A stretch of 53,003 bases of DNA, counting the filler, from Asterionella formosa (Eukaryota), in NCBI GenBank assembly GCA_002256025.1. It is 4 parts of 4 records of this genome, joined end to end, with 100 filler letters (N's around TTAATTAATTAA, not from the genome) between each part and the next. Parts side by side here need not be neighbours in the genome. Positions count along the whole stretch, not along the records: positions 13,284 to 26,461 come from NKIB01006895.1; 3 more parts are not named here. One strand, 5' to 3'. Each line of letters opens with the position of its first letter. Within the stretch, counting starts at the first letter, position 1. The position numbers and the translations under genes are program-made. Under the pieces are notes generated by a model that was not told the DNA's origin, ran no database searches, and saw only the letters and a program-made list of their open reading frames with translations. Below, piece after piece: positions 4,868-49,833 of this stretch.

Positions 4868-7800
4868 TCAATCACATAAAAAACCTTTGGTTGCTTGTGC
4901 CAGTGGCTTAGTCAGCACATCAGCCAAGTTTGTCTTTCTATCCTCTTTTGTCACTCTGATTGTGCCTGCTGCTACTGCCTCTCTTGAACGATGATAAGCA
5001 ATTGAATTGTGTTTCTTCTTAAGCGTAGATTCCGGGAAATAGCTAGTATTCTTGGTAACTGCCTCGTTGTCACAAAAGATGTTGGTTGGCCCTTCTATTG
5101 GTATTCCAAACATTCTCAGTTTGTAGCGCAGAGCCTCCACTAACTCCACAGAGATCCTCATGGCAACAAACTCGCTTCCAAAGGTCGATGTCTCAACCGT
5201 ATTTTGGCGTTTGCTGTACCACACTACTGGTGCCCTGTTAGCAAAGAGTAGGATACCAGTGTGTGAGCGTCTTGTTATACGATTACCTGCATGGTCAGCG
5301 TCAACAAAACGATGTGTTGACACCACATTTACACGGGCTTCTGGCATGTCCCCTGGAATTGGCTCATTTGCCCCTCGATAAAAATCATGCCCATCACACT
5401 TCACAAATCTCGATTCAGCAATATCAGAGTACTGGGGATCAAATGCCAAGTAATGTTCGCTTAGGTCTTGCTTTCAAGAATCCGAAGATATAATAAACCT
5501 GTCAAAGATGCCCTTTCGAGGAAACGCAAGGTGAGAAGACAGCATTGACACTTCCATTGCAATATCAATCCTTCCGAGTTCTATCGCCCACCGCAAGACT
5601 CCAATCATCTCTTGATAATAGCGGATGCCTTCTAATTCTAGCTCCGCTTTGTGTCCAGCTCCGGTCGATAATTGGCTTGAATTGGTGTGGTGCACCTGGA
5701 TGGTAGTCTCTGACCACTTGACTTCAATGCTGCTTCGACATTTGCTATGGATGCTTTAACATATTGCTCTGATGACATTGTCCAGCAGTCCATTCCATTA
5801 ATGATCTTTTGTGTGAGCTGTGCCCCAAGATAATTTTCTGGTTTTTCAATCTTGTCGTCTTTCAATTTAAATGTTGCTTGGATACCCTTCATAGTTGCAT
5901 GTGGATCATGGGATATACATAAGATATCGTCAACATATACTATAAGCATCATTTCATAGTACTCAAGCCCATTGGGTTTGGCCGCTGGTCAAATCCATAT
6001 GTCTGGATCCGCTTTGTTGCTTTGTTGGAATATAGCTCAAATCATAAAGAGCCTCAGCCAAATGTGCTTGGAAGGCCGCACCACTAGACTTTAATCCATA
6101 CAATGCTTTTCGATTGACCATCACACCTCCAGCTTCTGATCCGAATTCTGGTCCTGCAATAGTATATATTCTCTCACGGCAGTCAGCAGTCAAGTATGCA
6201 TTTTGGATGTCACATGCCAGTAATTCAAGGTCATTGAGAGGGCGATCCTCACTGAATCCCTCGAAACCACCGAGGAGTATGTCAGTGCTGCTGGGGCCTC
6301 TGTTTCATTCCCGTTGGCAACTAATCTTGCCTTTTGTCTGAAGTTGTTGCCCATCTTAATGTAAAATATAAAATGACACTTGATTCTCTGGTACCCTGGA
6401 GGGAGTTCCTTTTCATCCTGTTCCCACATCTCAAATGCCGGCCTCACGTTTTTTATCTCTGTGCAAATTGCATCCCACCAGAGACTATTGCCATTCTGTT
6501 TGTCAATTGCATCGCTTGTTCCACTGAATTTGGAATACGAATTCCAAACTTATGCATTCACTGCCAGTACTTAGATTTAATTTTGGATAGGATCCTATTG
6601 CGCTTCCTTTTTAAATTTCCAACCCACCAAGCAAAATCTGGTTCCTCATCTATTTGGTTTGCAATTGCGTACTCTGCAACTAGGACTTGGTATGAATGTT
6701 TTGCATCCTTCAGAGCAACCCAATTGGTGCTACCGTCTTTCCACTGACACAACATGTGCCATCCTTGTGTTTTCTCGCGCCTCCTTTTCATGCCATTCTT
6801 CATCATTATAAAGGCGTCGTCTTTGTCAATAGCGCTATTACTTCACGGATGGTCAATGATATCTTCTAGGAGGATATGTCTATTCCCTTCTTCATCAATC
6901 TTTGAATACAAGTTTTGATCAATGATGTTAGCAGATAATGATTCAGATACACCATCCTTAAATTCAACAGCCTATTCTTTCATGTCTTATAATGGGTTCT
7001 CATTTGCCATACCAATCAGTCATCCTTCTGCATCACGTAGCCGCTTTGTAACTTTACTAAATTGCGCGTCGCAATTGTCATTCACTCCACTTGTCAATGC
7101 TACTTCCTTATTGAGGTATGTATCAGGAAAGGTGTCAGGAGTAAAGGTTTCATCCACTTCTGGGATACTTGAATCGGATATGACTCCATTGAATTGTGCT
7201 GAAAATTCTGTATGGTTATCTTCGGTGTAGTCATCCCAATCCTGTAATTGACGCTCATCTTGCTGCTCTCTTATGGTGTGATTTTCATCTTTCATGATGT
7301 CAGCAACTTGCTTGTTGTGTCATACTCCTTACATTGCTGTTTTACCTCATGTGTCCCTAACTCCAGGTTTGTAATGCACTGCAATGTGGTTCTTGAAATA
7401 ACTCTTCCATTTGATGTCAGTATCCAGTATGACATTAGGTTTGTCAATGCGGTGTGATACGCCCAGCCAACGTCCAAACATATTGTCACCAACCCCTGCA
7501 TTATTGTGACACCAAACCCAATCATAGAAACTAAAATCGAGATACTCTGAAATGTTAGGAGTCTCGCCTGTTACCTGCTGTTCAAGAGGTGTGCGACCTT
7601 CAAGTTGAAATGATGAGTTTGCTGTTAATGACATCGTCTCACACAACCATACTATACCATAGTCCCACAGACATTTTGGTACTCTCCGCTTTGTCATTTG
7701 TTGGAACCATTTTCGTTTTACTTCTCTAATTACCGCTTCAGCTCTGTTCTGTTGTGGGCATTGTGGTTTGCTGACATGGTGTTCAATGCCATATTTCCTT

Positions 7801-10421
7801 GCAATCTGCATAAATTCAGTTTTAGGCCCAGTTTGTTTGCTTGCGCCATCAGATGTCAGCTGTTCAGGAACTCTGTAATTGCGTCTGAATTGTCGTAAAG
7901 CCTGTCCAGCCATCGACTTTCAGTCCATTGGATACGCCTTCACAAAGTATGACTTGTTTGCAAATATCTGTGCACAGGTGTTACTGGAAATAGATTTACA
8001 TCGTCCAAATAACGTGTCTGTGTAGAACTTCTGGTTCCTTAGTTTCTTCTGATTGAACATCCTGTCTGTCCTATACCTTCTGCTTAGGGGCAATATCGCT
8101 GATCGCACGCCTTGCTGAGTTGTTACCCTTAAGGTTTGTTGGGCCTGCTTCATACCAATGTTCCATCTATGACCTAGCTGATCACTAGTTATTGATGTGT
8201 GTCTTTTGTTCGATAGTATGAACGTTTTCCTTTCTTGGACGTTAACTGCCTCAATATTTCGCTGGCTCATTAATGATTTCGTCATTTTGTGAAAGCAATA
8301 AATTGACGATATTTGCAGTAGTCCTGGTTCAGTATCACTGCAATCACATTCTGCCTTCATGTGTTCTGTAGATGCTAATTGCACAGTGTGTGGGTTCCAC
8401 TTGGTGTCAAGTGTAAGGTGTACATGAGGACATTTATCAAATTATGCTTGAGTGGGAGTGGACGATTCAAGGAGGATGTTAGTTCTGCTGGTGATTAAGG
8501 GGATTGTCACATGGTTAGTTATAATGGAAACGGGTGGTGGGTCTCTCTCAAATGGGTTGTCCTGAACAGTGACACCGGCATATTGCAACTGATTTGGGTT
8601 GATCAATGAGTGTGTGAGTTTATCACCAAACCATAGACCTTCATGAATGACCGGAATATAAACTTGGCCATCTTGCTGATCCATGTAAGATGTTGCTGCA
8701 GTTACGATTGGTATGTCACATTCAGGGTTATACGCTTCAGAATTGAATGGGGCAACTTCACATCATACCCGACCAGTGTAGTGGAGCAGTACGAAATTTG
8801 ATCCAAGTGCGCATGTGTCCGCATGGGATCAAGTTCACAATGAGCTGTCTGGATATAAGTGTGATGAAGAGACAAGATAGTTCGATGAATATTAGGTGCA
8901 GCCCTTTGATTGATATGCTGCCAACGCATGAGACAGAGACGCAAGTCAATCTGTTATACTTCATTTTGCGCTTTCCTTCCCTCCAAATGCATTTCCTGCT
9001 TGACTAGCATTTGACTTCTTTGGTGTATCCTCTGCAGCATTGTCTGCATTGCCATCTGAATTGAACTAATGATTGCCGTCGTTAGCTGCTGTGTAGTCAA
9101 TTCAGATATGGTTCACTTGCTTCCACCTTGTTCTCCCTTCTTGTCGCGTTCTTTGAGAATCTTGCTTGTCACGCTCAACAAAAGATAGCTTATCCCATTC
9201 CGCTATAGAATAATATCCAGTGCTGGTTTTCTCTGGACTACTGCGTCCGCCTCCTGTTTCGTCCTTGTCCATTTCCTCTTCCTCTTTGTCCACTGTTTCG
9301 CCCGCCATGACCACCACCACAATCAGCAGTAGTAACTGCACTAATTTTCTAGACAATTGATAATCCGGGGTCTGAGAAATCTCGGAGTTTAAATGGTTAG
9401 CAGCAACAGTAAAAGTGATCCCATCTGTATTCAACTGATACCTTAGTTGTGCCACTGCTGCTGCTAATGCAGAGTTCTGCACTTTGGTAAGAAGCTCATC
9501 GACTTTGGCTCTCTCAGTTAATAGTTCATTTCCTTCTTCAAAAATGGTAAAAATCCGCTGTAACAAATCTAGGAACTTGTTGAACGGTAAGGCTTGTTCA
9601 GTTTTGTAGTGCAAGGTATTTTGGATCCGCTTTGCATCAGCTATTCTCCTAGTAGAGTTTCCTTCACCAGCATAGTGGCGACGCAAAGCAATCATGTCAC
9701 GCCTGCCATCTTGGTACTTGGCAATGTTGCGTATCCAGTTCTCAGTGTTTTCTCCTTGCAAGAACCCAATAATAAGATTGTGCACTCGCCTTGTATTGGC
9801 TATGTAATACTGCCCATTAAGCAATGCTCGATTAATCATCCTTTCATTGAATGTAGCATACTCTGTTCCTGGGGTGGGGTTCTCTAGCTCTCACATGACA
9901 ACATGTGACAATGGAATGCCATTTCCCCCAGGGATGACCAATAGGTAGTTAATGAACGCCTTCTCCCATTCAGGCCATTTACGTTCATCCTTGAATTTTC
10001 CTGGATCAGCTGCCTTTGAGTTGGTGGTGACCAATTCAATGTCGGATTTACGAATTTGAGCCAAACTGAGGGCTGCATACATCGTTTCTTCATCAAAATT
10101 TTCATGGTTTGGAATATTGCTTGCTCTATGACAGTCCTGTACCCAATGCATAACACCAGTCAGCTTCTTAGTGCGTCCTAGTCCAAAGACAATCTGTCCA
10201 TTTGCCTGGGTACGCTTGCCAACAAACTCATCCGCCATATCACGGATATCCTTCTCCACCACAAGGTAACGGAAATCTTCGAATCAGCCCAACCCTGCCT
10301 GCATGATGCCAGCCCTTCCGGCTTCTGATTCAAATCCAATCACCTGGAGTACTTTGTCAACGCCTATCAACATCATTGGTGAACCTTCATTCACAATCGG
10401 AGCAACTGCCACTTCGGCCAT
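4868..10421 (-). pseudogene. copia gag-pol, with many frameshifts and stops
   Basis: Gag from ATG 10421 (DPGKFKDERKWPEW, HYAGEGN, AGNAFGG). Protease ELD(S)HADT at ~8830, frameshifted. Integrase FYTDTLFG, SDGA, QQNRAE. RT KARLVA, KALYGLKSSG, YVDD. RNase H FVDADHAG, STFGSEF, CDNEAV, NLADVLTK. Confidence 0.92.
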
Positions 10422-18437: not shown

Positions 18438-19492
18438 TCAAGGCGACACGGTATCGGCAGTTTTAGTTTCGGTAAAATAACAAGACCTTCCGTCCGAACT
18501 GACCCACATAGTGCGTCCCGTCTTGGAATTGACATGAGCAGTGAATCCATCATGAATGGTTTTCTCCAACACTTTGGAATTGTCGTCCAGCATCTTTTTC
18601 AACGCGGCATTCTCCAGTTCAAGTTTGGCAATCATTGCCTGCAGATCCGGTCCAGCTCCATTGACCAACACAGGCATAGTCGGGGCAGCAGGAGGGGAAA
18701 TAGCAACGGGTGGCGCTGAAGCAGTAGTACTGCTTGCCAAAAATCCTTCCTCTCGCAATTGTTGCACCCATGCTTGAACCCTTGATTCTGAAAGTTCTTC
18801 TTGATTGACAGCATCCAACAACAATCCACAAAACAAATCTCCACGAATGGATTTGGACGACTTGTGTTCATATCCTTCCTGCGACGTGTATCCCATCATG
18901 GTACATCCCAGCTTTTGAAAGACATCATGTAATTCACCAGTGGCATCGGCATAATTATCCGAATAGGACACGGAATCACCAAGACCGAAGACTGCCACTT
19001 TCTTAGACTGCAACGACAAGTCCTGCATTTGGCGATAGTAAATCTCATCCCATCCGACCCCACTTCGTTCTGTATCGGCGCCAGTGTTCCAAGTGGGAGT
19101 TCCTACAATATAAAAAGTCGCAGCACTAAAAGTGTCAGAACCGAGGGGGCAATGTGCAAAATAGGGCGAACCCTGCATCCTGCAACATGGGAAAGCAACA
19201 AAGCAGAAAATGACGCACCAACAATCAAGGCATCGTATTTGTCAAACTCAGCAGCTAAGCTATTCTTGACTTCATCAATGTCAATGGGACCGACAGCTTC
19301 GCCATCTTCAAATTGTGAAGCAATCAATTCAGCTGCCTCTTGCGTGCTTCCCGTCGACGTGCCGAAGAAAATACCCACAGCATCTAATGCAACTCGGGAT
19401 TTTTGATGCTGTTTCGACGGACCACGGGCGGTAAATCCAAGTGTGCTTGTGTAGCATATCCAGCAAATGATGAAAGGCAAGAGTTTCGTCAT
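18438..19492 (-). CDS. Plastid-targeted long-chain flavodoxin with C-terminal extension (~312 aa); exons 19492-19219, 19102-18438
   Basis: FMN-binding motifs GIFFGTSTGST, LIVGTPTWNTG and VAVFGLGDSVSYSDNYADA. Intron 19218-19103 (GTGCGT...GTAG). Signal peptide ends TLG|F. Confidence 0.95.
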
Positions 19493-20445: not shown

Positions 20446-22575
20446 TTACTGTGGTCGCAACCATCGAACTCGAGTTGGAATGATGTCATCATCCGGATTG
20501 TAGTCAAGTAGGGGAATAGGTGTAGGTGGGTATTCCAGATGGGGAATAGGAGGCACCAAGTCTTCTTCTGGATCGGAAGGTGCGTGTTGAAACTCAGCAT
20601 ACTTGACTGGTAGTTGCAGTGGCTGCTGTGCCGGAAAACCATCCTTGATTTCATCTTCATTTGCAGAAAGAGAAGAAATCTGAGGCACATGAGGTAACTG
20701 CAAAATGTTAGGCAGTATCTCGTTATGACAACTATTGGACGGAGGTGCAGGGTGATCAGCACGTGGAAGAGCAATAGGTTTTGCTTCAAATCCATCAACT
20801 CCATAATTATGTGATACAAACTGGCTTGTCATTGACTCGCTAGTATCGAAAACAGGATCATTAGGTTCATCATCAAAGTTCAATTCTTCTTCGTCGTCAT
20901 CCCAACCATTGTTGATGTTGATTGGGTAGGCTTGCTGGTGCATCGCCTCAGGACGTACAGGTTCTGTTTGTTGATAAAAGTCTGGCAGGTGGTCATGCGA
21001 ATTTACAAAAGGCACAGAATCTGTTTGTTCATACGGGGCTGGAGGTGTCTGTCTTTTCAGTATATGATCCGTTCGATAAAGGGGAGGTGCCTTTTCTTGA
21101 TTGGTAATATCCTCGGGCACGATTGTATTTGCCAACCGACTAAGACCCGACATGAGAAACCCTCCTAAAATAGGTTTTGGTCGGCTGCTTGGTTCGACCG
21201 AGTATCGATTCAATGGTTGCTCTTGTGATGAAGTCTTGGTATGCAATTCATGTGCATCCATAATATCTGCAGTAGACGGCAATGTGGGCATAAATTTGGT
21301 CAATGCATTCACCTTGGTCGAGACATTGGCCACTTTATCGATTTGGCGTAATGCAGATGACAATCCAGTCGATGTTTGCTGAGCCATTTGTTGTGTTTTT
21401 GAGAGCTGCTTGAGAAAATTGTCACGGACTGCGTCGGCTGAGGAAGGTTGTTGCTGTTCCATGCAGTCGTCATCCATTTCCGATAAGAATATTGCTGTGC
21501 CTTTGAGGATGGTCGTGTCTGTTATGGCTAGTTTGATGTCCTTGATTTGATAAACTACCACCTCTTGGTCTGGATCTAATATGACATCCACAAATATCTC
21601 TGCCACATGCATCCTACGCCCATCCTGGTCGGGGAGTGACAAACTCATACAGCAGTCAACCTGAACAGAAAACGCATCCATCTTGAATTTACAAAATGTA
21701 CAAACGGCAGTGGCCAAGAATTTTGGAACAATGAGTTCACCAGTCATGACGGTTATAATATCCGCCAAAAGTGATTGATTTGCGGCTCTGATCAAGATGG
21801 AGTTGGGTTGTGAAAGTAGATAGTTTCTCAAATCTTGCTTGTTTGTGATAATAATTCCTTGCGCCGTTGTAATTTGATAGTCCATCCTTGGCACTTCAAC
21901 ATCAACTGTGTACGCCAACAGCTGTGGACGAGCCCTGTAATACTCCAAAAGTTCCATCGCGTGGTCTGAAGTGTTGTATTCTGCTTCCAACACAACATTG
22001 AGGCTCTTGACGAGGTGAGGCAAACCCTGAATGTACGACAGCAATTTCTTGTAGATGGCCAATTGGTGGGTTGAAAGTTCCTGATCCTTGGCTGGTGGCA
22101 AAGTCGCAGGCTTTGGTTTCGAAGGCGCTGTGAGTGGTTCTTCTCCGCTGTAAGGTTCAAGGTCAAGGTCTAGATCATCGTCGTCGTCCCATCCGTCCGC
22201 GTCGAGCGTATCCGATTCCGCAATGACTTCTATTGCAGGCGGCGAATTAAAGTCGGTTCGCGAGGGGTACGCATCGTCATTCAGAGCAACACGTTCCCCC
22301 TCATCCCAACTCGAAATGACTGAGTTGGCGGTTGCGTTCGAATCCCTCTTGCTTGCATTCACTGCAACTGTCAAGGCTGTTGTGACCGACGCTGTCGACG
22401 CTCGTGTCGATTCCACAGCAACAGCAGTCAAGGGTTGATACATGTCCGGATCAACGCTGCACTCATCATTCGCAGCCGATTGCAATGACAGGCCATCCAA
22501 GACTTCATCAACGTCGCCCCAACCATCGTTCAATCCAGACAGATCGTCAATATCATCATCCCAGCCGTCGTTCAT
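20446..22575 (-). CDS. Hypothetical protein (~709 aa) with repeated (D/N)GWDDD motifs
   Basis: Long uninterrupted ORF; likely start MNDGWDDD at 22575; acidic, Pro-rich termini around a globular-looking core. Confidence 0.8.
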   Translation of the reverse strand: MNDGWDDDIDDLSGLNDGWGDVDEVLDGLSLQSAANDECSVDPDMYQPLTAVAVESTRASTASVTTALTVAVNASKRDSNATANSVISSWDEGERVALNDDAYPSRTDFNSPPAIEVIAESDTLDADGWDDDDDLDLDLEPYSGEEPLTAPSKPKPATLPPAKDQELSTHQLAIYKKLLSYIQGLPHLVKSLNVVLEAEYNTSDHAMELLEYYRARPQLLAYTVDVEVPRMDYQITTAQGIIITNKQDLRNYLLSQPNSILIRAANQSLLADIITVMTGELIVPKFLATAVCTFCKFKMDAFSVQVDCCMSLSLPDQDGRRMHVAEIFVDVILDPDQEVVVYQIKDIKLAITDTTILKGTAIFLSEMDDDCMEQQQPSSADAVRDNFLKQLSKTQQMAQQTSTGLSSALRQIDKVANVSTKVNALTKFMPTLPSTADIMDAHELHTKTSSQEQPLNRYSVEPSSRPKPILGGFLMSGLSRLANTIVPEDITNQEKAPPLYRTDHILKRQTPPAPYEQTDSVPFVNSHDHLPDFYQQTEPVRPEAMHQQAYPININNGWDDDEEELNFDDEPNDPVFDTSESMTSQFVSHNYGVDGFEAKPIALPRADHPAPPSNSCHNEILPNILQLPHVPQISSLSANEDEIKDGFPAQQPLQLPVKYAEFQHAPSDPEEDLVPPIPHLEYPPTPIPLLDYNPDDDIIPTRVRWLRPQ

Positions 22576-23142
22576 TGCGGATGATTCTGAATTACAACTA
22601 GAATGATATTTTTTTATCTCTTGAGTTTTTTTTTGGGACGAGGTCATCCAGGACCACAGGTAGCATCTTATCATCGTATTCATATATGAATAATTCATTG
22701 CGGTCATACCTCGCTCAGCCATCATGTGGTGAATGACTTTAGGGTATATTGACGATGATGACGACAAGTTTAAAAACGCTGACGCACGACACCACCAACT
22801 CGAGTCTCTTGTGGTGGTGGGAAAGGAAGAAAACAACTAACATACCGGTTTATATGTAATTACATCACACGAACCATCACCATCAAGGAAAGGATGAAAC
22901 ACTGCTCTGCCTTGTATTTCAACACTTGCCTCTTTTATAAAATATACTCCACCATTCTTGTGCTCCTATCTGATACTACAACCAAACAAATCAAGAAAGT
23001 CTAGAACAAGATGACTCATCGTCGTCATGAGTGTTTGAATGCCACTTATTATTATGAATCTCCAACTATTACTATTCGTATTCCCGGTACTCGGAATAAT
23101 AATCACAATAAGAAGAAGAAGAATAATGCAATTGTAATTCTG

Positions 23143-25115
23143 ATGGTGCTGATAATGGCAGCATCAACTCTGGTTGCCAGGACAGATGGATTTCTTGTCC
23201 AAACCACAACGACCACCATCAGACGACACCCGACCTTCATCTTTACCACATCTGATGGGACGCCACTTCACAACAAGCAACAACAACTGCAATTGCAATT
23301 GCCAGACATGAACTCCTATGCTGCAGGATATCAAACTGTCTTTACAGAGCTCCCATCACAGTCATGCACACCGTCCATGGGATGTCTCCCCTCGGATCTC
23401 ACGGGGACATACTTTAGAGTAGGACCTGCCATGTTTTCAGCAGGATCCATAATGCCTCCCAAAACATCCATAGTTCAACCAAAGAAAGGACCACCAGTCC
23501 CAGACGGCCAGTTGAAAGAACGGATGGTTACACATCCATTTGATGCTGACGGTGGAGTATTGGCGGTGACCTTTTGCAGCAATAACAACACAGCTGTATC
23601 TAGATTTAGATATGTCAGGACCAATGCATTTACTAAAGAACGAAAGGCAGGACAACGAATGTACACGGCCATGGATACGACACGGACTATGGGAGCTGGG
23701 CGGGGCAATGATTTGATATTGCCACTATTTAGACATCATTTACAACCGGGGCTCAACAAGTATAGGAAAAACACATCCAACACCAGAGTCATGGTATGGG
23801 CCAACAAGGTACTGACGTTGTGGGAGGGAGGACTGCCATACAAATTAGATATGTTAGCACTCAGTACAGAGGGAAGGTCACAATTGGGTGGAATTCTCAA
23901 GGAAGAACAACCCATGGGTGGAAAGGCAGTATATGATTCGAAACGAGATAGGATGGTCATGTATGCCAACCAACCCGATGCACGATCATCAAAACTCACC
24001 TTGTATGAATTCAATGCAAAATTCAAATTGACAAATGAAGTCACGACAGAACTTCCTGGATTTGCACTCTTGTCGGACTTTGCTCTCACTCAGAATTATT
24101 ACATTTTTGTACAACCACCTGTGACTGTGAATGCTGTGAAATTCATGTTTAACAAGGAGCCAGGAAATATTTTGGAATTGCAACAAGGACCCTCGGTAAG
24201 TGGAAAACAGGTTCGATAGTGACAGGATGGTGTTCTATTACATACGAACAAAACGCTCAACACTTGCTTGTACCTGGTATTATTTTTTTTTCATAATAGA
24301 CACTCCATTTGATCCCTCGAGACGGGAGTCGTAAAGTACAAAAATCACTATCCATACCATTTGATGGAGTTTTAGATGCAGATTTGCAATTCATCAATGC
24401 ATTCGAACAAGATGACGGCATACTTGTGGTGGATGCGATTCGTTTGAAGGAACATGAGACAATGAAAGGGCCGCTCCCATCATGGCCGTGGGCATCGTCA
24501 TTGGATGCCTTTCAAAGGAATACATGTCAACGATCATTGGTACGATACCGTGTGTCCAAGGATGTTGTATCCAAAGAAATTCTTTTCAAGTCGCAATGTT
24601 ACTTTGGAGGTATTAATCCAGCATTAAGTTCACAACGTCACCGATATATTTATATGGCGATTGGGTCCATGGAGGACCAAGTAGCTCCTCCTCAGGGGAT
24701 CGCTCGATTCGACACGGAAACCAAGGAGGTGGAATCGTGGATGCCACAAGCCCATGAATTTTGTGGAGAACCCATGTATGCCAAAAGCCAAACATCCACT
24801 GACAATATTGATGATGGTGGATACCTCCTGTCAGTACTGTTCAACGGGACATCGAGTGATTTGGTTGTGTTGCGTGCTAACAATGTTGCAGCTGGACCCA
24901 TTGCACGTGTCCCTCTAGGATTGGCGGTCCCACACGGATTGTATGGATGTTATACCGACGAAGGTGAGTTCTCTTTTGAGGAAATCGATCGACGAGCGAA
25001 ACTTGCTGATAAGATGGAAAGTCGAGGAAACATGTGGAATGAAGTCAAAAGTGATTTTTCTGGTCTTGGACTACGCCTTGATGATTTCGAAGAATACTTT
25101 GGTGATATGATGTAA
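23143..25115 (+). CDS. Carotenoid oxygenase (RPE65/CCD/ACO family) homolog, probably plastid-targeted, lacking canonical His ligands; exons 23143-24195, 24300-25115
   Basis: LPSDLTGTYFRVGP, HPFDADG, RFRYVRT, KNTSNT, LWEGGLPY, EFCGEPMY, DDGGYLLS, GPIARV. Phase-0 intron GTAAGT...ATAG. The start could also be the upstream in-frame ATG at 23011. Confidence 0.92.
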
Positions 25116-25348: not shown

Positions 25349-26461
25349 TCACAATATAGAATTGAGTTGTTTTTCTACGAAATCGCAAAATTCTTCCAAT
25401 TGATTCTCTTGTTTTGCCCTTGTCGCTTGTTTGCAAAATTCCAGTAGGTGAGTAAGATTGTGACAAAACAATAGAATTTGTGCCAAAAGTTCCTTGGCCA
25501 CAATTAAATGATGTATATAGGCACGACTATGAAAATGACATGCCAAACAAGAACATCCTGGTACCAATGGACGAGCATCTCTGGCAAAGATGGGATCGCC
25601 AACATTGAAACAGCCATTGTGATCTAATTCTAGTGCTGATGGTATCGTCGTTTCTTTCAATGCTTTTATCTTTTTTGTTGCCTTGTTGGTATGACTTGAT
25701 GTGAATATCGGTAGTCCATCCATCATTGTAAGATCACATCCAAAAGCAAGTTGAGATTGAGACCATTGCGTAGGCAGCGATGTTCCAATGGTGTCGACCC
25801 CCAACCGTACGAAATCCAGTAATTGTTGGAAAGTGTGACAGGAAAGGACGACCACAGGCTTCGTTGGATCACATTCCGTAAGCACATGGCCAAGTCGTTC
25901 ATTTCTTTCTTGTCGCGAAGAAATATGATCTGTTCCTACAATGGCATATCCAGATGCAGTCGATGGTAGTCCTCTTGGCGAGGGTGGTGCTTGATGGGGA
26001 GTATTGCCTACAAGTACAATTGGGAACAATACCATCATGTGATTGCAGGTATCCTGCAGTATGGCTTCGTGGTGTTTCCACCACGACATTGTTCGTCGTG
26101 CTGCTGTTTCCTTGCGTTTTTTGGTATCGTGGTCGGTGGCCATGTCAAACATGGCTACCGACGAATTTGCGAGCGAAACTAGCGGCAGTGAGGACGAGGT
26201 CGCAGGAGCAGCATTAGCAGTAGTAGTACACATGGTTCGATAGGTGTTTGGTGTCAGAGGAAGTCTCCCATGAGGTGTCCACAGCATGACATGAGTGTCG
26301 TGAGACGAAACGGGGGATTTCCCAATGGAATCTTGCAGCAAGTCAAAGGTTGGGAGCAGCAGCTTGTGATAGGGTTGCACTGTCGGGTCCACCACCAACG
26401 ATGTGGACGCGAAGCCATACCCATTCGGCTTTGTCGACTCTGGCGAGGGAAATGTCGGTTT
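25349..26461 (-). CDS. QTRT2: Queuine tRNA-ribosyltransferase accessory subunit-like (5' end lost in gap)
   Basis: C-terminal TGT Zn site PLVPGCSCLAC..HSRAYIHHL..KELLAQILLFCHN; LGVD motif. No catalytic DSGG motif visible. Frame is open up to the gap. Confidence 0.8.
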   Translation of the reverse strand, partial: KPTFPSPESTKPNGYGFASTSLVVDPTVQPYHKLLLPTFDLLQDSIGKSPVSSHDTHVMLWTPHGRLPLTPNTYRTMCTTTANAAPATSSSLPLVSLANSSVAMFDMATDHDTKKRKETAARRTMSWWKHHEAILQDTCNHMMVLFPIVLVGNTPHQAPPSPRGLPSTASGYAIVGTDHISSRQERNERLGHVLTECDPTKPVVVLSCHTFQQLLDFVRLGVDTIGTSLPTQWSQSQLAFGCDLTMMDGLPIFTSSHTNKATKKIKALKETTIPSALELDHNGCFNVGDPIFARDARPLVPGCSCLACHFHSRAYIHHLIVAKELLAQILLFCHNLTHLLEFCKQATRAKQENQLEEFCDFVEKQLNSIL

Positions 26462-26561
26462 NNNNNNNNNNNNNNNNNNNNNNNNNNNNNNNNNNNNNNN
26501 NNNNNTTAATTAATTAANNNNNNNNNNNNNNNNNNNNNNNNNNNNNNNNNNNNNNNNNNNN
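26462..26561. other. Assembly gap with artificial linker
   Basis: N run with TTAATTAATTAA at 26506-26517. Confidence 0.97.
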
Positions 26562-31372: not shown

Positions 31373-32332
31373 TTATTTGTGGGCAGTAGGTAAGCAAATG
31401 GCGCTATCTACTAGTTTCCCAAAAATGTTGTCTGGTGGCTGCTGGTATCCATGTTTTGGGTCAGGAAGCCAGCAGAAATCTAGATTGCGCAAGGCTTCCA
31501 CCCGCTCCATGTTCAAGCCAGAAACCATGACGCCCTCAACCTTTTCTTCAATGGTTATACTTAGTACATATTCTCTGCACACTCGCTTTTGGTGTCGAAC
31601 CCAGCGACCCAACTGTGTATCCTCCTCCCATGTTTGGGGAACGTGGCAATGACCAAACCTCTCTTTGAATTTCCGTAGGGACTCATAACTTTTCCACCAG
31701 ACTATCGAGCTAGGATACCATAGAAATCCAGCGTCATCCAACAAATCGATCTGCTCTTTGGTCAAAGCTTTCCCCAATTTCGTGTCCATAGTCCCAGCTT
31801 TTGCTTTCTTGAACTTGTTTCGTTGACAAGAACACCATGACCCGAGCTGCTTGTTTTCAGCCCACGCAATTGGAACGTTACAATGCCCAAAGCGATCCCT
31901 AAAATCCAAGAGTTCCTGGTACTTCTGATCCCATTTGGAAGTTCGAACTTTCCATACAAATCCGATCGAGTTCAAGCGCGCAACTCTCTCCTTTGAAAGG
32001 AATGACAGGTGTTCCTTTTCTGGAGTTTCGAGATATTTATATTGCATCCGTTGGTTTCGAACCCAAATACCCAAAAGTCTAGTTTCGGGATCGGCACTTG
32101 GGTTGCTGTGCCCATTCATTGCGATGAAATTTTTGATCTGCTCAAAACGGTCGTTCCACCGTTCCTCTGCTGCATTTGCCTTGGAGAGCAACGCATTCTC
32201 ACATGGCGCAACAATTGAGGCAGCAAGCTGTTGCATATGCTGTGCCCTTTCTTCACCAATCGAGAAAGCGCAGCACCCATATCCTCTTATAATGAGGCCA
32301 GCAAGGACAGACACAAAAACTCTCCCCGACAT
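31373..32332 (-). CDS. Helicase-associated (HA) repeat protein, three repeats, with N-terminal signal-like segment
   Basis: Three W...L..F...GH..VP......LG.W...QR...L..ER...L..(I/A/L).F.W units; no helicase motifs. Confidence 0.9.
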   Translation of the reverse strand: MSGRVFVSVLAGLIIRGYGCCAFSIGEERAQHMQQLAASIVAPCENALLSKANAAEERWNDRFEQIKNFIAMNGHSNPSADPETRLLGIWVRNQRMQYKYLETPEKEHLSFLSKERVARLNSIGFVWKVRTSKWDQKYQELLDFRDRFGHCNVPIAWAENKQLGSWCSCQRNKFKKAKAGTMDTKLGKALTKEQIDLLDDAGFLWYPSSIVWWKSYESLRKFKERFGHCHVPQTWEEDTQLGRWVRHQKRVCREYVLSITIEEKVEGVMVSGLNMERVEALRNLDFCWLPDPKHGYQQPPDNIFGKLVDSAICLPTAHK

Positions 32333-32471
32333 CAGTTGCTCTATTGGACCAAAATCTTCGTTTTATGTCTAGAATATGATTCGTGATCAATATTTGTATT
32401 TCGTTGCAGAATAATCGCTCGCTTGTAAATAATGCTGATCCATGTTGTGATGGTGCAAAAAATGTTCTGGA

Positions 32472-36569: not shown

Positions 36570-37793
36570 CTACATACCTCCAGGAAATGGCTGAGTAACT
36601 TCGTGAAACCACCCAGCCAGTGCTATCCTTGTGCCTTGCTTGACTACTTCTACTTGATGGGGAACAGACACTGAATCAAACATTACCAGCAAGCCTCGAA
36701 GTGGTGCAATATTGGTCGCAACTGCACCCTCGGGGTCACTACCAGCTTCCCATGCCGAGCGGTCTTCAAGCAGGAAAAATTGACTAGCAATTGTTGACGA
36801 AATGAAGAGACGAAGATCGTTTGATGGCTTCGAAGAGTCAGCGTCTGCTTTGACACATGCTTGAAGAAAATCAGTGACTGCCATACCCAAAAGTCCCTCA
36901 TTGACCCATGGCCTAGTGAGATAGTTACGCTCGTTTTCAGTAGTAATGGTATATAAAATACAATGGGGTTCATCTTGGTCATCATTGACTGGAAACCAAC
37001 TATCCAAATAGACCGGGTGAGTCATAGTATCTGCTGCCTGCAGCCATCCGACCTGCAAGTTTCCATCGTGCTGACTACCTCCAGGTCCTTTATTAGGCTG
37101 ATGAAACGTTCGAAGCGCCCCTCCATTTCTGTCAAGATCCCATCCTTCGTCACTTAAGTATATTAGCCAAGATATGGATCGTCGGGACGGGAGCAACCAG
37201 CCCTTTGCTCCCTTGAGGTCTTCGTGTCGTTCGTCCATGTGCCTGGCTAGTGTCGAACCCGAAGTGGACTTGGAATAGTAGCATTCATGTTCCAGCTCTG
37301 CATTCAACAGTGTCGGTCTATCCAAAACCTGAGCGAGCACCGCTCGTAGCGCGTGTAACTTTTGAGCCACTTTAGCAGCTTCCGTTGTAAGCAATCGTTC
37401 GTTGTCAATCGAATCCCTCCACCATGGCACCGATGCGGTCATTCTATCGCGCTGCCCAAACTCTTGCTTCGATCCTTTGACAGTGTTGGATAATCCTGAG
37501 GGAACAAACTTTCCACTTTTCGTCTCCAAATCCTTTATATCGTCAAGTAGCACTTGAATCTCTTTTTCATTAAGGAAATTATGGTGCAAATGGACTTGAC
37601 CAGCAACAGCGATGTTTCTATGGAGCTGTTCTACGTTAAGCCCAAGCTCTTGGCACAAGGACAGCCGAGCAGTTGAGGCCAATGCTGCCACATTCTGAGC
37701 TAGTATGGCGAGAGCTCCACAGTATAGGTATAAACGGACGAGCCTTGGTTGTTGATGAGCTGGAATGATATTAGTCATTATCATTGTCATCAA
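36570..37793 (-). CDS. 2OG-Fe(II) oxygenase superfamily protein (prolyl-hydroxylase-like)
   Basis: HxD (RHMDE), SWLIYL, GGALR, LVMFDS...PHQV...RIALAGWFH; exact start uncertain. Confidence 0.88.
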   Translation of the reverse strand: MMTMIMTNIIPAHQQPRLVRLYLYCGALAILAQNVAALASTARLSLCQELGLNVEQLHRNIAVAGQVHLHHNFLNEKEIQVLLDDIKDLETKSGKFVPSGLSNTVKGSKQEFGQRDRMTASVPWWRDSIDNERLLTTEAAKVAQKLHALRAVLAQVLDRPTLLNAELEHECYYSKSTSGSTLARHMDERHEDLKGAKGWLLPSRRSISWLIYLSDEGWDLDRNGGALRTFHQPNKGPGGSQHDGNLQVGWLQAADTMTHPVYLDSWFPVNDDQDEPHCILYTITTENERNYLTRPWVNEGLLGMAVTDFLQACVKADADSSKPSNDLRLFISSTIASQFFLLEDRSAWEAGSDPEGAVATNIAPLRGLLVMFDSVSVPHQVEVVKQGTRIALAGWFHEVTQPFPGGM

Positions 37794-38099
37794 TAATTTT
37801 ATACATAATTTGCAATATCGAAGCTTATGAGCGATGCATGGTGATTTTATTTATTTTATTCACATTTCGGCACAAATATATTCTATACGTGCCGGGATGT
37901 ATGATCTTTTGGAAAATTCTCGACAATGTTTGTGTTCTTTTCTTACATCGGCAGACGTACCGGTATATCATCCTCCGGAATATGATAGATTACATAAAAT
38001 GTTGTGTTCACATACCGTATGTACTCTCATCTCTCATGTACTGTTTTTTTATGAAGAGTGCATACATAAAAAAACATAGCAACGATCTTTAATATCATG

Positions 38100-42066: not shown

Positions 42067-45000
42067 CTACAAATCCCACGCATCCAACGGTCCATCGCTC
42101 CCAGGATCATTTCTCATATCGTTCGATGATGAGACCGTTGACATAGTAGGTTGAGATGCGCTTCTATGAATACCCACTTCACCCTCCTCATCTGAATCAT
42201 CCCAATTGCCTTTTGAGTTAGCTAGCTGCGCCAGGTCTTCCTCCAAGGATTTCGTCGCATCAACATCGTCGGCGATAGCTTCATCTTCAGTTTGACCAAT
42301 AATGTGTCCTTTGGTATTGCGTTCGGCCTTAGCAAGCTGATTCTCCGCTGTCTTAAGTTGGGCTTGCTGCCGTGCCAAGACGTCCTTGAGCATCTCTGCT
42401 GCAGTCGTCCCTCCTCGGACACGACGCAATTGTTCCGGTTCATACCGACCACGAGGAATTCCTGGCTTGTCCATATTCAAGCCATGTGCATCCGCCCAAG
42501 CCAACCAAGGCATCCATGTATCGGGGTCACCTCTACGTAGCGTTTGGTCGTTTCCAATCACAATGAGAGCCCGTCGAGCTCGAGTAAACGAGACATTGAC
42601 ACGACGCCAATCAGAGACAAATCCAACAGCTCCATAATCATTACTTCGAACGGCGGAAAAGACAACTGCTTCTTTTTCTCTACCTTGGAAACCATCCGTC
42701 GAAGAAACTTCAACGTATGGTGGAGCACTGCAAAGCTGTTTGGTCATACGTCGAATCAACCGGGCTTGCGCTGCATATGGAGTCACAACAGCAATATCAG
42801 AAGCAGAACATTGACCACCTGCCAAAAGGGCTGCAACTGCATCGCAAGTGGCTGCTGCTTCGGCTTCATTGATCTTACTCACGCCATCGTCCATTTCTCG
42901 ACCGTGATTAACTGGAACAAATGCAACTGGGAATTCTTCACGTGGCCAAGGAAACCCTGCCAATGGGCGTCGCTCTGGTGCGCTGACTCCGTTGCGAAGC
43001 TTTCCTCCGTAAAAGAGGTCAGAAGGAAACATTGCGATTCCTGGGTGCATACGGTATTGAGTATCAAGCATGACTGATTCATAGAAGCGGAATGGTGAGT
43101 AATCTGAAATTTTGCAATTTATGACCTTTCCATGATAGGCGCGATATACGAACAAAGCTTACATGGTGGAACACCGCAGGCTACCATTCTCGAAAAGAGT
43201 GGAACTCCCAAGCCTTCCTCTTCCGCTCTTGTGCTCAATACAGTTGGCGGCAACTGACAATGATCACCCACCAAGACAAGTTGACGGCATCCTCGGGTCA
43301 AAGGGACGAGGACAGCAGGCTCCGTTGCTTGTGTCGCTTCATCCAGCAATACCCTCTCAAACACCAACTTATCCAAAATATCGCCACCTGAACCAATGCA
43401 CGTACAACACACAACTTGGGCATTTCGAATCAACTTCATCTTCTCCTTAATTGCAGAAGCTGATGTTGCTTGCTCGCGGTTGCCAGGCTGGGCGGGCCTA
43501 TCAATACAGAACCGCAATAGCTCTGGACGAATCGCCTCTGGTCTTCCCAATCGTACCACTCGCAGTCCCGCATTTGCACACCCTTCAACCAAATTGTCTA
43601 CGGCAATATTTGAATCACTGGTGGCTAAAATCGGATTGGGCTGCTGGCCAGTCGTGGCAGCCTCCGATGCTGCTAATCGAGCCCAATGCTGCAATATTCG
43701 AATTGCCACCGCCGTTTTGCCCGTGCCTGGAGGTCCTTGCACCAGTGTTAGACGATTTGTCGCAGCTCCCTCCACTGCCAAGGCCTGACTTGCATTCAAA
43801 CCTTCCAATGCGCCGTGCCGTTCCAATGCCAATCGAGACGCATCTTTGACACAGTCTGCGTCATCCCCTTGATCTTGTTCATTCCAAGCCACTGGTTGTG
43901 AACATAGTGCCGCAGTTGACGTCATTTCCTGGCTCCGAGTGGCGCTCAAGTTATTCATGACCATATTTTCGTCCATGGCCGTAATGGCTTGAATCAATTC
44001 TGGGGATGGACGTCGCAGTGCGTTGTCCAACGGCGCTGCCATGGCAACAGCAGCTGCCAACTGTCGATTGAATCCCATACGATTCGCCAATTTATCAATG
44101 CGGTAGACATTTCCTTCAACTGCTTCGGTCAACATGTTGTAGAGTTGTGCATTTGTCTTGTCTTGTAGACGTAACATCATAGGGTTGGTACTGGTGACCG
44201 TGGCTTCAATCATGTTCCGATCCAACGATTCTGCCGACATAGGGTAGGGCCCAGCGTAGGGCAAGATACTAACAGCATCCCCAGCTTGAATCCCTCGATT
44301 CTCCATACTGTCAGGGACAAAAACTCCCAATTGATGCCCTGGATCCACCAAAAGCTCTGTTATCTTTTTTGCTCGTTTAAGCTTTGCATCCACCACGCAC
44401 ATGGACGAACGAACCAGCCGCTCACAAGGTGCCGAACAAATACGGTCGCGGGCCGACGTCGCCTCCTCCAAAAACTCCAGGGCAATGCCACGTACAATTC
44501 TCAAAAAATATGTTCGCTTGGTGGGCACGTCAAATTCCGTCGCAATGCAGAGTGCGTTAATCATGTCGGCCGCGACAAATGCAGACGAGTTTCTTAAATT
44601 TTGAGGGAGACACAGGAGGATCGATTGTGCCTGTACACAAGACATGGTTCCTGGAAGGGTACAGTTGCGTAAACAATAGAGGCCCTCGTCAAACATGGCT
44701 GCCATAACATATGCTTTGAGGACTGTTTCCAAAACCGTGGCTTCCAATGCAAAGTTGTGATTGGCCCTATCGTGGAGTAGTCGAGTGAGTGTGGTCGGGT
44801 CAGATCGTTCAACGCATGCGCGTACCTGTCGATTGAACAAGAGCGCAGCCTTGCGATTGGCCTTGTGATCTGTAGATAAACCCTTTTTCTTTCCTCTCGA
44901 TTTTTTCGAAGCAGCTGCTGCTATGGGTTCGTCCTTCTCGTTCAGTGATTCTACCGAGTCAACCTTACGAACCTTGACAAGGGACGCTGATGTGATGGAC

Positions 45001-45740
45001 ACTTGCTGGGCTGGGAGATTCTTCAAAGCGTCTGTGGTGGTGACAATGACAGGTGTAGGAGGTTCTTCAGGTGCTGTAGATGTCAAAAGCTGATCAGATG
45101 CTTGCTTCGGTTCCTTTTTCTTGCGAAGGAGTTTCTTCCTTTTCGGTTTGTCGTTTAGCGTATTGCTTGCGGAAATTTCAGCGACAGTAGTCGTATCAAT
45201 AGCTGCGTCCAGTTGGTGTTGCTTGACAACCGACTCTTGTAGAAGATTAATTGACGCTAGCGAATCCGCGAGTTTGCTCTCAATTGCCAAAGGGTCCGTA
45301 TCAGAATGATTGCTGCTTCCGTTCGTGCTGTGCTGCCTTTTCAAAATGATTGGAATTCCTGGTTTGGTGGGAATCAATTCCGAAGAAACGGGAGGAACAA
45401 GGTCAATGATTAATTCTTCCTCGAGCTGATCTATCATTGTGGCATCAGCGGGTCTGCTGGCCGCATTGCCGCGTCCAAACGGTCTCACGCCGCTACGAGT
45501 TCCTCGTCCACCACCACTTCCGCTTCTCGCCAGAGACTTTTCCCCAGGGACCCCGTCAGTAGAAGCAGATGCATCGCTATTTCCTCCTCGGCTCGAGCGG
45601 CCTGCTCTTCCTCGTCCACGTCCGCGCTGTCTCGAAGGATTCCTTCCAGCCCGTCCCGACGAATTTGATTCCGCTGCGGGCAACGAGGCGTTCGATTTCA
45701 CTTGCTGGTACTGCCTTGATTGCTCCGTCGTTTCTATCAT
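42067..45740 (-). CDS. Upf1-like superfamily-1 helicase (~1194 aa); exons 45740-43163, 43073-42067
   Basis: QGPPGTGKT, SNIAVDNL, DEATQ, LVGDHCQLPP, QYRMHP, VTPY, DGFQGREKE, RRVNVSFTRARR. 89-nt intron GTAAGC...ATCAG. No Upf1 CH domain, so not called UPF1. Start uncertain. Confidence 0.92.
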
Positions 45741-45939
45741 AAGCACAAAGAGTGTTATAACGTAATGTATATGTGTGGCGCAAACAAGAGCCCAAGTTTG
45801 CACGATGTGAATGTTCAACAACAACACAACAAGATAATGGAATGAAATGGAGGCCGCTGCTTGTCTGGGAGAACAAATTTCTCGTATTTTGCTTGGATTG
45901 GAGCATTGGTTGCATCATCATTGATATGTCAGTCCTGTG

Positions 45940-46395: not shown

Positions 46396-48199
46396 GGACA
46401 TCCGGAAAACGTGATAATTTTGGGGGGTTAAATATTATTAGCTAATTATTCAAAACTTTAGACCGGTAGCTACATATATTGAGAGCACGTCGTGCAAGGG
46501 CTAGCACGCTTCCATGGAGGCTTGGCTTGTGCTCATGACCCTTGCTGCTTAAGTTAAAAGTAAATATGCATTTGGTTCTTAAGTTAAAAGTGAATGAGCG
46601 TTTGGTGCTTATGTTCATAGCATTCATTTACACAGTTGGTCTCATCAGCCTCCCTTTTGAGGTTGCCAAACAAGCAATCGGCGATGTATCGTCCCTGTTC
46701 TGGTGTCAAATCCCTCTTCTTATGTATATTGACTACTGAAGGGTCAATGAAAAGGGGGGGTCCAGAGCAAACATTCCAATCAGGGCACGATTCTTCAAAA
46801 AAACCGCCAAAAAAAATTTGAGGTGAGGTTCACCTAATTCTAGTTTACTTAGAACATATATATTATGAACACCATTTTGTTAGGAATAATTTTTAATAGT
46901 AGGGGCTGTTAGCTGGAGGGATATCAGAGCTTGCGCTTCATGATTGGCCAAGCCGCAAAAGTTTTGGTGCAACTTTATATGAACAGAGGGAGTAGCGATT
47001 TATATGCTAACCAATGCTTTGAAATCGTCAATTAGCTTGCGTTACTTCCATACTATTTAGTACCAAAGGTTGCTGTCGACGAGAAATGGAATGAAAAAGC
47101 TAATTTAATTTCTACTCCATTCAGCTGGTATCACATTTATATACTACTATGTATACAGGTATCAGAAAGTATTTCCGTTGATAGATTCATATAATGTCCC
47201 AACAGTTTTTTTGTTGGTACAAATATGCAACGACGTCATTGTGCTTACTCCTCTACCTAAATGGAGAACATCACCTGCGGCCTCTTGGCGTGACTACCTG
47301 AAACAGTACGTACGAGATTTTGTCATGAAATCCCCACAATCACCTGTGAAATGAGTTGTAACAAGAGGAGCATCACCCGACAGATGAGAACTTGAAGTGA
47401 TTGATGTGCAAGGTCCAAACGAATTCTTGACAAATACCATATGCAGGGTATACTACTGTTATGATGGACACTTAAACCCGGTTAGCTGGTACCAGTAATT
47501 ATAGTATCAACAAAAGTAATAAGAAATAGTTTTTGTGGTAGCAATCGAGTAATATAAAACACGGTTTGGGGATAAAAAAATTTCATGTATACATTAAAAA
47601 ATATGTCCTGAAAGACAATGTTATGATTCAAAATGGGTAAGATTTAATGGCTTAGATCTCCATAAATGTATGTTCTACTTCAGAACTGATCAAATGATAG
47701 CTATCCCCGTTCTATCGACTACAATAAAGTTCGTACTTGGTTCGAATTTTATCATTTAAGAAACTTCTATAATTTTAGTCGGAAGAAGGAGTTATTAAAC
47801 ATTGACTCTCAGTTTTTAGGTTGTCCCTCTGAGGCCAAGGATTTCGCCATCACGAATGTCATCCGCAATTCTCATGTTGCTGCATGAGTATACCTATATG
47901 TGACAACATTTTTCATGAATGGAATGTGATTATAGTTTACAGGGAACAGTTATATACGAAAATAAAAATGAATAAATTGAGTACCTTAATGTTGTGATAT
48001 TTTTTCTGTAGTACGTACACACAAAATATTTGGGAGTGTTGCTGTGCCAGTTGTAGGGGTACAAGATTATGGGGGATACAAGACACCAGGTTTACGATAC
48101 CAGGGTATCGGTAGCTAAATTTCGGTGTTCTTATTTGTTGTATTGAAAAACAGTCGGACGACATTGGTCGAAGCAATTTTCTCGCCACGACTTTCAAGG

Positions 48200-48340
48200 T
48201 ACTCCAACACTACATCAGGTACTGGTGCAAATATACCGTAAGTACTTTTGAACACGTGGTACCCTGGTACCTGGTACTGGTATCAGGGGATCTGTTGGTA
48301 CCTGGTATGGTATATTCTGGTACAACCCTGATACCGGTAT
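48200..48340. repeat. Degenerate TACCAGG/CCTGGTA motif cluster
   Basis: GGTACCCTGGTACCTGGTACTGGTA, GGTACCTGGTA and TACCGGTA upstream of NAPE-PLD. Confidence 0.8.
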
Positions 48341-48489
48341 CTTCATTTGAAGAATACCTGCTCTGCGGATTATTTGTGATTTTTTTGATAATCATCTCAC
48401 CACAAATCTCGTGTCCGAAACACCACATAATCCTTTTCCTACCCAGGGTCGGTTCGGTCTATGAATTCACTGTCACTGTCATTGTCGTG

Positions 48490-49833
48490 ATGGTGTTTGT
48501 TGAACGGAGTTTGCAAGGCACAGTAGCGAGTCATCGTCGTCAAGGATTCACCTCTCTTGTGGCGAAAATAAACGGAAGTAGCATCAATGCTCTCAGATCT
48601 GTTGGTTCGACTACGGTCAATGAGAAGAAAACGGACGTTGGCAGCAGCACCACAAGCAACGACAGAAAGGAAAAATTCTCAAGTAGGAGCAATGTAGTAG
48701 CAACTACATCGCATATTATTCATCGTTCTCCCATTGACATTGAAAGACTTGTCAAAGCCCGTGTAATCGAGCGCGATTCGTGGTCCATCCAGGGTCAACC
48801 GGGCATTGTTGATATTGTCAAAGCAATGTGGAACCATGCTCCCGAAATGCTGTTTCATCAAATCCCGTCGCAAGACGAACTCAATCAGGTCTTTCCAGTA
48901 CTACCCATGGACTGGGATAAAGTTGTCAATCCACCACTGGAAGAAATCCAAGTCACATGGCTGGGCCATGCCTCGTTGCTTGTCCAAATGAATGGGGTGA
49001 ATATACTGACAGATCCGGTCTTTAGTCAACGATGCTCTCCTTTCCAATGGCTCGGTCCAAAACGATATCGACCTGCACCCACATGTTTAAAAGTGCTTTG
49101 CTCTCAAAAATTGAAAATCGATTTAGTTTTGATTTCCCATAATCACTACGATCATTTAGATTTACAATCGATTCAAGATATTATTTCGTATTCGTCGGAC
49201 GACATTCAATTTGTTGTTCCACTGGGAGTCAAGGCATGGTTTCGCAATAATATCATCCCCCGTAATTTTGCTGGCCATGGATCGTCGCCTTCATCACTTC
49301 TGTCAAAGATTCACGAAGTGGACTGGCACGAAAATGTTGACTATTTCGGTTCTTGCCCGGACCATCCAATATTACAAATTACTTCTGTCCCTATGCGCCA
49401 CTGGTCAAATCGCGGTAGCGACAGGGATGAAACACTTTGGTGTGGGTATGTCCTGCAAACTAAGATGAGCGATAATAGTGACACGATACCCTTGAAATTT
49501 CTTTTCCCTGGTGATACGGCATGGTTTGATGGTTTACATGATATTGGGACCCGATACGGTCCCTTTGATGTCAGCGCCATTCCGATTGGAGCGTACGAGC
49601 CACGAGAGTTTATGAAGTCCACTCACATTAACGTGGAAGAAGCCATCCAAATGAAGGATGCGGTTCAAGCAAAAATGGCAGTTCCAATTCACTGGGGAAC
49701 GATAGATTTGCCATTGTGCCATGAACCAGTGATGGAGCCAAGAGAAAAACTATTGCAGTTCATGAAGGGGAGACCAGACAAGAATTCCTTTGTACCGTGG
49801 TTGATCGGAGAAACGAAGCAAAGTAAAAAGTAG
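48490..49833 (+). CDS. NAPEPLD: N-acyl-phosphatidylethanolamine phospholipase D-like metallo-beta-lactamase-fold hydrolase
   Basis: VTWLGHAS, ILTDPVFSQRCSP...GPKRY, ISHNHYDHLD, HWS.R, LWCGY, GDT, IPIGAYEPR..M...H, PIHWGT. First in-frame ATG at 48490. Confidence 0.92.
   Translation: MVFVERSLQGTVASHRRQGFTSLVAKINGSSINALRSVGSTTVNEKKTDVGSSTTSNDRKEKFSSRSNVVATTSHIIHRSPIDIERLVKARVIERDSWSIQGQPGIVDIVKAMWNHAPEMLFHQIPSQDELNQVFPVLPMDWDKVVNPPLEEIQVTWLGHASLLVQMNGVNILTDPVFSQRCSPFQWLGPKRYRPAPTCLKVLCSQKLKIDLVLISHNHYDHLDLQSIQDIISYSSDDIQFVVPLGVKAWFRNNIIPRNFAGHGSSPSSLLSKIHEVDWHENVDYFGSCPDHPILQITSVPMRHWSNRGSDRDETLWCGYVLQTKMSDNSDTIPLKFLFPGDTAWFDGLHDIGTRYGPFDVSAIPIGAYEPREFMKSTHINVEEAIQMKDAVQAKMAVPIHWGTIDLPLCHEPVMEPREKLLQFMKGRPDKNSFVPWLIGETKQSKK

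Follow-up and report, generated by a model that had tools for sequence, protein, structure and literature searches.

The locus and its transcript

The window is a stretch of 53,003 nucleotides, assembled from four records of the diatom Asterionella formosa. It contains a two-exon gene for a homolog of the carotenoid oxygenases (RPE65/CCD family). The gene and its neighbours are arranged as follows.

23143-25115, plus strand: carotenoid-oxygenase homolog gene, two exons, 622 codons in total
23143..24195, plus strand: exon 1, 351 codons, presequence and N-terminal CCD propeller (PF03055, E 2.7e-45)
23143..23193, plus strand: predicted signal peptide, ending at a G/F boundary, first half of a bipartite plastid presequence (read from the sequence)
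24196-24299, plus strand: intron of 104 bases, phase 0, GT..AG, spliced in X2 and X6 contigs
24300..25115, plus strand: exon 2, 271 codons and stop, remaining propeller and C-terminal tail (PF03055, E 2.5e-33)
25352-26509, minus strand: queuine tRNA-ribosyltransferase-like gene (PF01702), tail to tail with the CCD gene
20446-22836, minus strand: acidic open reading frame, 796 codons, repeated GWDDD-like motifs, matching no Pfam family, divergent from the CCD gene
395-2340 and 7350-9890: fragments of Copia-type retrotransposons (RVT_2 domain found at 395-1342; adjoining frames retroelement-like by eye)
18441-19241, minus strand: flavodoxin domain, unrelated
31376-32362, minus strand: helicase-associated repeats, unrelated
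36573-37850, minus strand: 2OG-Fe(II) oxygenase, unrelated
42070-45914, minus strand: Upf1-like AAA_11/12 helicase, unrelated
48115-49830, plus strand: metallo-beta-lactamase-fold protein, unrelated

Pfam matches across the window give no functional clue from the neighbouring genes. The queuine tRNA-ribosyltransferase match also occurs at two orthologue loci, L048 and L051, and so marks a small conserved neighbourhood.

The intact frame and intron read in the first-pass annotation are confirmed. Both exon frames are open, and they match PF03055 with 155.7 and 116.3 bits against a cut-off of 27. The 104-base intron is precisely absent from contigs of RNA runs X2 and X6, which belong to two studies. 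It is retained in an X8 contig, and X7 leaves the exon joint uncovered; these contigs come from four of the 22 listed runs and give no expression level.

Public assemblies contain a 666-residue spliced product (P0003), which differs from the 622-residue product by three residues and a 44-residue upstream extension. This extension corresponds to an upstream in-frame ATG at 23011, which would place 44 residues (23011-23142) ahead of the signal-like stretch. Because strain contigs vary there, with several substitutions and in-frame insertions, 23011-23142 is probably 5' UTR. Most orthologues open with a signal-like stretch followed by Phe, and a start at or near 23143 is therefore favoured. A loose signal-plus-Phe regular expression, applied with neither a chance control nor a targeting predictor, is matched by 66 of 81 orthologues. 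From this presequence pattern, the protein is predicted to be located in the plastid.

An intact fold without the four-histidine iron site

According to PMC6060882, the iron ligands of the Synechocystis apocarotenoid-15,15'-oxygenase (ACO) are His183, His238, His304 and His484, a set called absolutely conserved, and three of the four are backed by an outer-sphere Glu. These are Glu150, Glu370 and Glu426 in PMC13734108, and PMC3299332 gives the four His as the mark of the CCD family.

The first-pass annotation had read K, S, Q and Y at the four ligand positions, and alignments to ACO bear this out at codons 23923, 24073, 24387 and 24942. Its account of the second shell was incomplete, since it had missed that the equivalent of Glu370 is Tyr at 24600. 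The other two outer-sphere acidic residues are kept.

23923..23925, plus strand: Lys261, replacing ACO His183 at site 1 (alignment to Synechocystis ACO; orthologues K64 A10 S4 T3)
24073..24075, plus strand: Ser311, replacing ACO His238 at site 2 (alignment to ACO; orthologues S70 N10 L1)
24387..24389, plus strand: Gln381, replacing ACO His304 at site 3 (profile alignment; His in 9 of 81 orthologues)
24942..24944, plus strand: Tyr566, replacing ACO His484 at site 4 (alignment to ACO; orthologues H43 F21 Y16 N1)
24600..24602, plus strand: Tyr452, replacing outer-sphere Glu370 (none of the 81 orthologues has an acidic residue here, whereas 214 of 215 His-intact relatives do)
23824..23826, plus strand: Glu228, matching ACO Glu150 and present in all 81 orthologues
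24768..24770, plus strand: Glu508, matching ACO Glu426 and present in all 81 orthologues

Orthologues were collected as 120 matches, and 39 partial ones were excluded from the alignment (A1), leaving 81 full-length sequences with 51-62% identity. The best-named close matches are the diatoms Attheya, Extubocellulus, Cylindrotheca, Seminavis and Eucampia, and the public names of the orthologues are apocarotenal oxygenases. None of the 120 matches has His at site 1 or site 2. Among the 81 full-length diatom-type orthologues, His is found at sites 1 to 4 in 0, 0, 9 and 43 cases. No ligand His remains in 31 of them, site 4 alone is His in 41, site 3 alone in seven, and sites 3 and 4 together in two; two is the maximum, and three or four ligands occur in 0 of 81. 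Since none of the 81 retains His at site 1 or site 2, the loss there is old. It does not correspond to four independent substitutions in a single copy, as had first been proposed.

Assembly errors can be excluded as the source of the substitutions, because the orthologues share the loss and none of the differences listed among strain contigs lies at the four codons (nine weaker differences fall outside this listing). The replacements at the old ligand sites are varied (K/A/S/T, S/N, Q/H/E/K and H/F/Y), which fits a dead site and not a new catalytic one. At site 4, where 43 of 81 orthologues have His, the mixture of H, F and Y resembles drift that followed the death of the iron site. A Schiff-base role for the Lys at site 1 was rejected, as this Lys is missing in 17 of 81 orthologues. 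The His of the PHG motif, which the first-pass annotation had named as a possible occupant of the metal site, is unlikely to have taken it over; 57 of 215 His-intact relatives have this His together with all four ligands. Judged by the lost ligands, Fe/O2 cleavage is very probably absent from the Asterionella protein.

Some more distant sequences have partial sites. In P0126, P0134 and L032, His is kept at site 2, and sites 1 and 3 are without it. Intermediate states of the iron site are represented, within the tailed clade described below, by P0159, which still has two His, and by P0218 and P0126, which have one each. Such states offer a handle on the order of the His losses. Three rows with one ligand off were excluded from the His-less count, and the apparent site-4 His of P0124 is an alignment artefact, the fourth His lying outside that reading frame.

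A structural model (AF2) built on the 81 sequences has a pLDDT of 81.7 and a pTM of 0.81; a single-sequence prediction reached only pLDDT 30 and was discarded in its favour. The first-pass annotation had called for a comparison of such a model with ACO and RPE65. The model superposes on Synechocystis ACO (2BIW) with Z 39.5 and an rmsd of 2.4 A over 454 aligned residues at 30% identity, so the fold is predicted to be intact. It matches the seven-bladed beta-propeller with helical dome of ACO, and its similarity to RPE65 and NinaB is lower (Z about 30-31). A homodimer prediction for residues 167-666 scored 0.00, which is evidence neither way. Searching the ESM Atlas with the mature protein returned generic RPE65 clusters only.

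The equivalents of ACO Glu150, Glu426, Thr136, Trp149 and Phe371 are retained in 76-81 of 81 orthologues, and the old cavity may therefore still matter. Positions of the Phe113, Phe303 and Pro372 type, which we take to line the tunnel in ACO, are altered in essentially all orthologues. The segment aligned to ACO residues ~108-130, presumably the membrane patch of ACO, is 44 residues long in diatoms versus 28-29 in His-intact relatives and contains 1.1 Phe and Trp residues versus 2.8-3.0 (parsed in 69 of 81, 53 of 102 and 52 of 55 rows). Cys is found at three positions in 73-79 of 81 orthologues. The diatom clade also has an insertion, which lies in this same segment.

23692..23766, plus strand: diatom-clade insertion with a conserved His-His pair at 23734-23739 (His198 and His199 in 80 and 81 of 81 orthologues)

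Selection was measured on 53 metagenome loci, of which 32 intron-free coding sequences were compared together with the Asterionella gene (33 sequences, 528 pairs, Nei-Gojobori). In 11 pairs with dS 0.17-1.4, which are partly non-independent, dN/dS is 0.063-0.137. Most remaining pairs are saturated, including all 32 with the Asterionella gene, so these values concern its orthologues. Among strain contigs, 20 of the 26 coding differences listed are synonymous. The gene is transcribed, under purifying selection among orthologues, and not decaying. The first-pass annotation had asked whether the His loss is shared with dN/dS below 1; these values and the absence of His at sites 1 and 2 in all 81 orthologues agree with that.

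Relatives and the C-terminal tail

Relatives were found by a profile search of 1.8 billion representatives and by a second homologue search. In a tree with the tail excluded and the His columns masked, the Asterionella protein falls in a clade with ACO homologues of red algae, ochrophytes and dinoflagellates (support 100/99), and further trees place it in the same clade with SH-aLRT values of 99 and 98. Cyanobacterial ACOs are the outgroup to this algal clade. AU tests did not separate one His loss from several (p 0.316 in one comparison; p 0.701 in another, the one-clade tree being 6.65 log units better), and the His-less rows sit on long branches. A profile made from nine non-diatom His-less proteins gave 28 matches and no further His-less lineage.

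The protein ends in a tail of about 50 residues that is found in the red lineage.

24960..25112, plus strand: red-lineage C-terminal tail, ~50 residues, a helix followed by W-N-x3-S-x-F-S-G-x-G (motif at 25035-25070)

In diatom orthologues the tail core has a mean conservation of 0.92, versus 0.70 for the propeller, and 23 of its 32 columns are at least 90% conserved. The model contains tail helices at residues 621-636 and 641-648, of which the first is confident, and pLDDT is below 50 at residues 644-657. Segments that become folded on binding a partner are typically, like this motif, conserved yet poorly ordered in a model of the single chain. Alternatively, the tail may do no more than pack against the propeller, or it may have a part in oligomerisation.

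Searches with the tail alone returned no Pfam family, a best PDB E of 0.88, and one ESM Atlas match of 0.81, which is at chance level. With a moment of 0.33-0.41, the tail motif gives no support to a strongly amphipathic membrane helix. A role in binding Rubisco or the pyrenoid was set aside since the tail is also present in Cyanidiales, which are not known to have pyrenoids.

The distribution of the tail was scored with a profile built from His-intact rows only, at a threshold of 20 bits. A coverage filter had removed nine of 258 rows beforehand, including His-less P0218 and P0289, which are tailed (44 bits). The Asterionella protein scores 44.5 bits. The threshold is reached by all 32 His-less rows, by 59 of 102 His-intact rows of the clade (the other 43 are tail-less) and by none of 113 rows outside it. 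Tailed His-less proteins occur in diatoms, Polarella and two relatives, Chattonella, Chrysoparadoxa, Rhodosorus and further rows. The association of His loss with the tail is statistically not independent: there are only two independent pairs (sign test p 0.5-1), and diatoms make up roughly two thirds of the His-less rows. It is also biased, because the search profiles contained the tail and favoured tailed rows.

The tail had at first been listed as a feature of the pseudoenzyme. It is also found in His-intact ACOs of red algae and ochrophytes, and hence does not belong to the His-less proteins alone. The dinoflagellate His-less proteins P0140, P0147 and P0312 share a tail ending in G-x-x-x-R with the His-intact Rhizochromulina-type proteins P0157, P0178 and P0180. 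This shared variant may hint that His was lost in dinoflagellates separately from diatoms.

His-intact copies with no tail or a short one are found in Odontella, Scrippsiella, Heterosigma and Galdieria. Among diatoms, the His-intact tail-less Odontella P0510 is the only named row in a 10-row clade with an SH-aLRT of 100. In dinoflagellates, His-less tailed Polarella stands against intact tail-less Scrippsiella, and in raphidophytes His-less tailed Chattonella against intact short-tailed Heterosigma. Such a pattern is expected if duplication split two functions.

The Asterionella genome has two other CCD genes, both His-bearing.

L002:1150-3051: CCD paralogue with four His, signal-like N-terminus, tail-less
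L001:959-2827: CCD paralogue with three visible His, the fourth out of frame, signal-like N-terminus, tail-less

L002 branches outside the clade of the iron-free homolog. It adjoins a RecA/Rad51-like open reading frame, recognised by eye. When the assembly (15,436 contigs, which may be incomplete) was queried with proteins of Pinguiococcus and Odontella, no copy from the same clade with its His intact came to light.

Comparison with known systems and possible roles

The Asterionella protein shares with Synechocystis ACO the seven-bladed propeller and the Glu150 and Glu426 equivalents. Unlike ACO, it is without the four ligand His and Glu370, and it has a presequence, the His-His insertion and the 50-residue tail. 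Cyanobacterial ACO rows are without the tail. With the His-intact ACOs of Galdieria, Cyanidiococcus, Porphyridium, Scytosiphon, Ectocarpus, Pinguiococcus and Rhizochromulina it shares the clade and the tail motif, but these proteins retain the 4-His site and the Glu370 equivalent. They are automatically annotated, and literature searches found no experimental study of them. RPE65 and NinaB are isomerases with the same fold and a changed reaction; unlike the Asterionella protein, they keep iron. Pseudoenzymes such as iRhoms and pseudokinases combine a conserved fold and purifying selection with lost catalytic residues, and they have active paralogues.

The first-pass annotation had proposed a non-catalytic pseudoenzyme. 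What stands of this is an intact, transcribed and conserved CCD fold without the 4-His iron site; the idea of four substitutions in this one copy, and of a tail special to the pseudoenzyme, falls away. The best explanation, to which we give about an even chance, is a non-catalytic binding or scaffold protein of the ACO fold that acts through its conserved tail. An ancestral red-algal ACO would have had two jobs, Fe/O2 cleavage of alkenes and an interaction that depends on the tail. Duplication would then have let the two separate, with some copies keeping the four His but not the tail, and other copies, the Asterionella gene among them, giving up the iron site and keeping the tail. In such a copy the propeller would be a stable platform, and the tail motif would fold on a conserved plastid partner, which may be a protein complex or a membrane surface.

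A protein of this kind may still bind pigment. As a carrier or sensor of carotenoids or apocarotenoids, the iron-free propeller would hold a pigment or cleavage product uncut, with the tail as a tether only. The retained tunnel-side and second-shell residues and the predicted plastid presequence agree with this, as does the uptake of carotenoids by the tunnel and nonpolar patch of the CCD family, described in PMC13734108. Against it stand the substitutions at positions of the Phe113, Phe303 and Pro372 type and an entrance segment that has grown in length and has fewer aromatic residues; moreover, the best-conserved part is the tail rather than the cavity; a carrier is unlikely, though worth considering. 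New chemistry is improbable. The protein could, for example, be an isomerase or hydrolase that needs no metal and works with the retained Glu residues, or it could have a new metal site made from the His-His insertion and conserved Cys. Glu228 and Glu508 are invariant, and the His-His pair and the three Cys are nearly so; RPE65 shows that a CCD fold can switch its reaction, though with iron kept. However, replacements at the old site vary freely, unlike those of a new active site, and the His-less proteins of dinoflagellates, Chattonella, Chrysoparadoxa and Rhodosorus show no His-His insertion.

The protein could also be a regulatory subunit that binds a His-intact CCD paralogue and activates, inhibits or localises it, as the first-pass annotation had considered. 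L002 and L001, with four and at least three His, would be the candidate partners, and other diatoms, dinoflagellates and raphidophytes have sister copies whose His are intact. The idea is weakened because the possibly incomplete assembly yielded no such paralogue from the same clade, L002 lying outside it, and only a small likelihood is left to it. A decaying pseudogene or sequencing artefact might be suspected from the lost catalytic residues and the long branches of the His-less rows. This reading is refuted by the selection and splicing data: the frames are open, transcripts are spliced, dN/dS is 0.06-0.14 and 81 full-length orthologues exist, so that its probability is negligible.

The preferred reading of a tail-dependent binding or scaffold protein can be extended to the whole red lineage, tentatively and with somewhat less than an even chance. 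Red algae may have given a cyanobacterial ACO a tail that docks to a core plastid machine. This moonlighting function could have come to outweigh catalysis, leaving an iron-free structural or regulatory plastid factor that is kept in diatoms, dinoflagellates, raphidophytes, a chrysoparadoxophyte and a red alga.

Literature searches, made mostly on open papers at the level of listings and abstracts, found no account of His-less CCDs, of a CCD-fold pseudoenzyme or of the tail. The passages found in PMC2483416 do not treat CCDs, and those of PMC9054022 do not mention them. As far as these searches reach, the iron-free CCD-fold subfamily of diatoms and other red-lineage algae is real, conserved and undescribed.

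The four His are treated as invariant in CCD/RPE65 enzymes, and a conserved iron-free subfamily would point to a non-catalytic job for the fold. The name apocarotenal 15,15'-oxygenase is then likely to be wrong for many entries in databases, and models of the diatom apocarotenoid and ABA pathways that count iron-free copies are likely wrong. Knockouts are routine in model diatoms. The tail may provide a compact handle on a plastid interaction in globally important phytoplankton.
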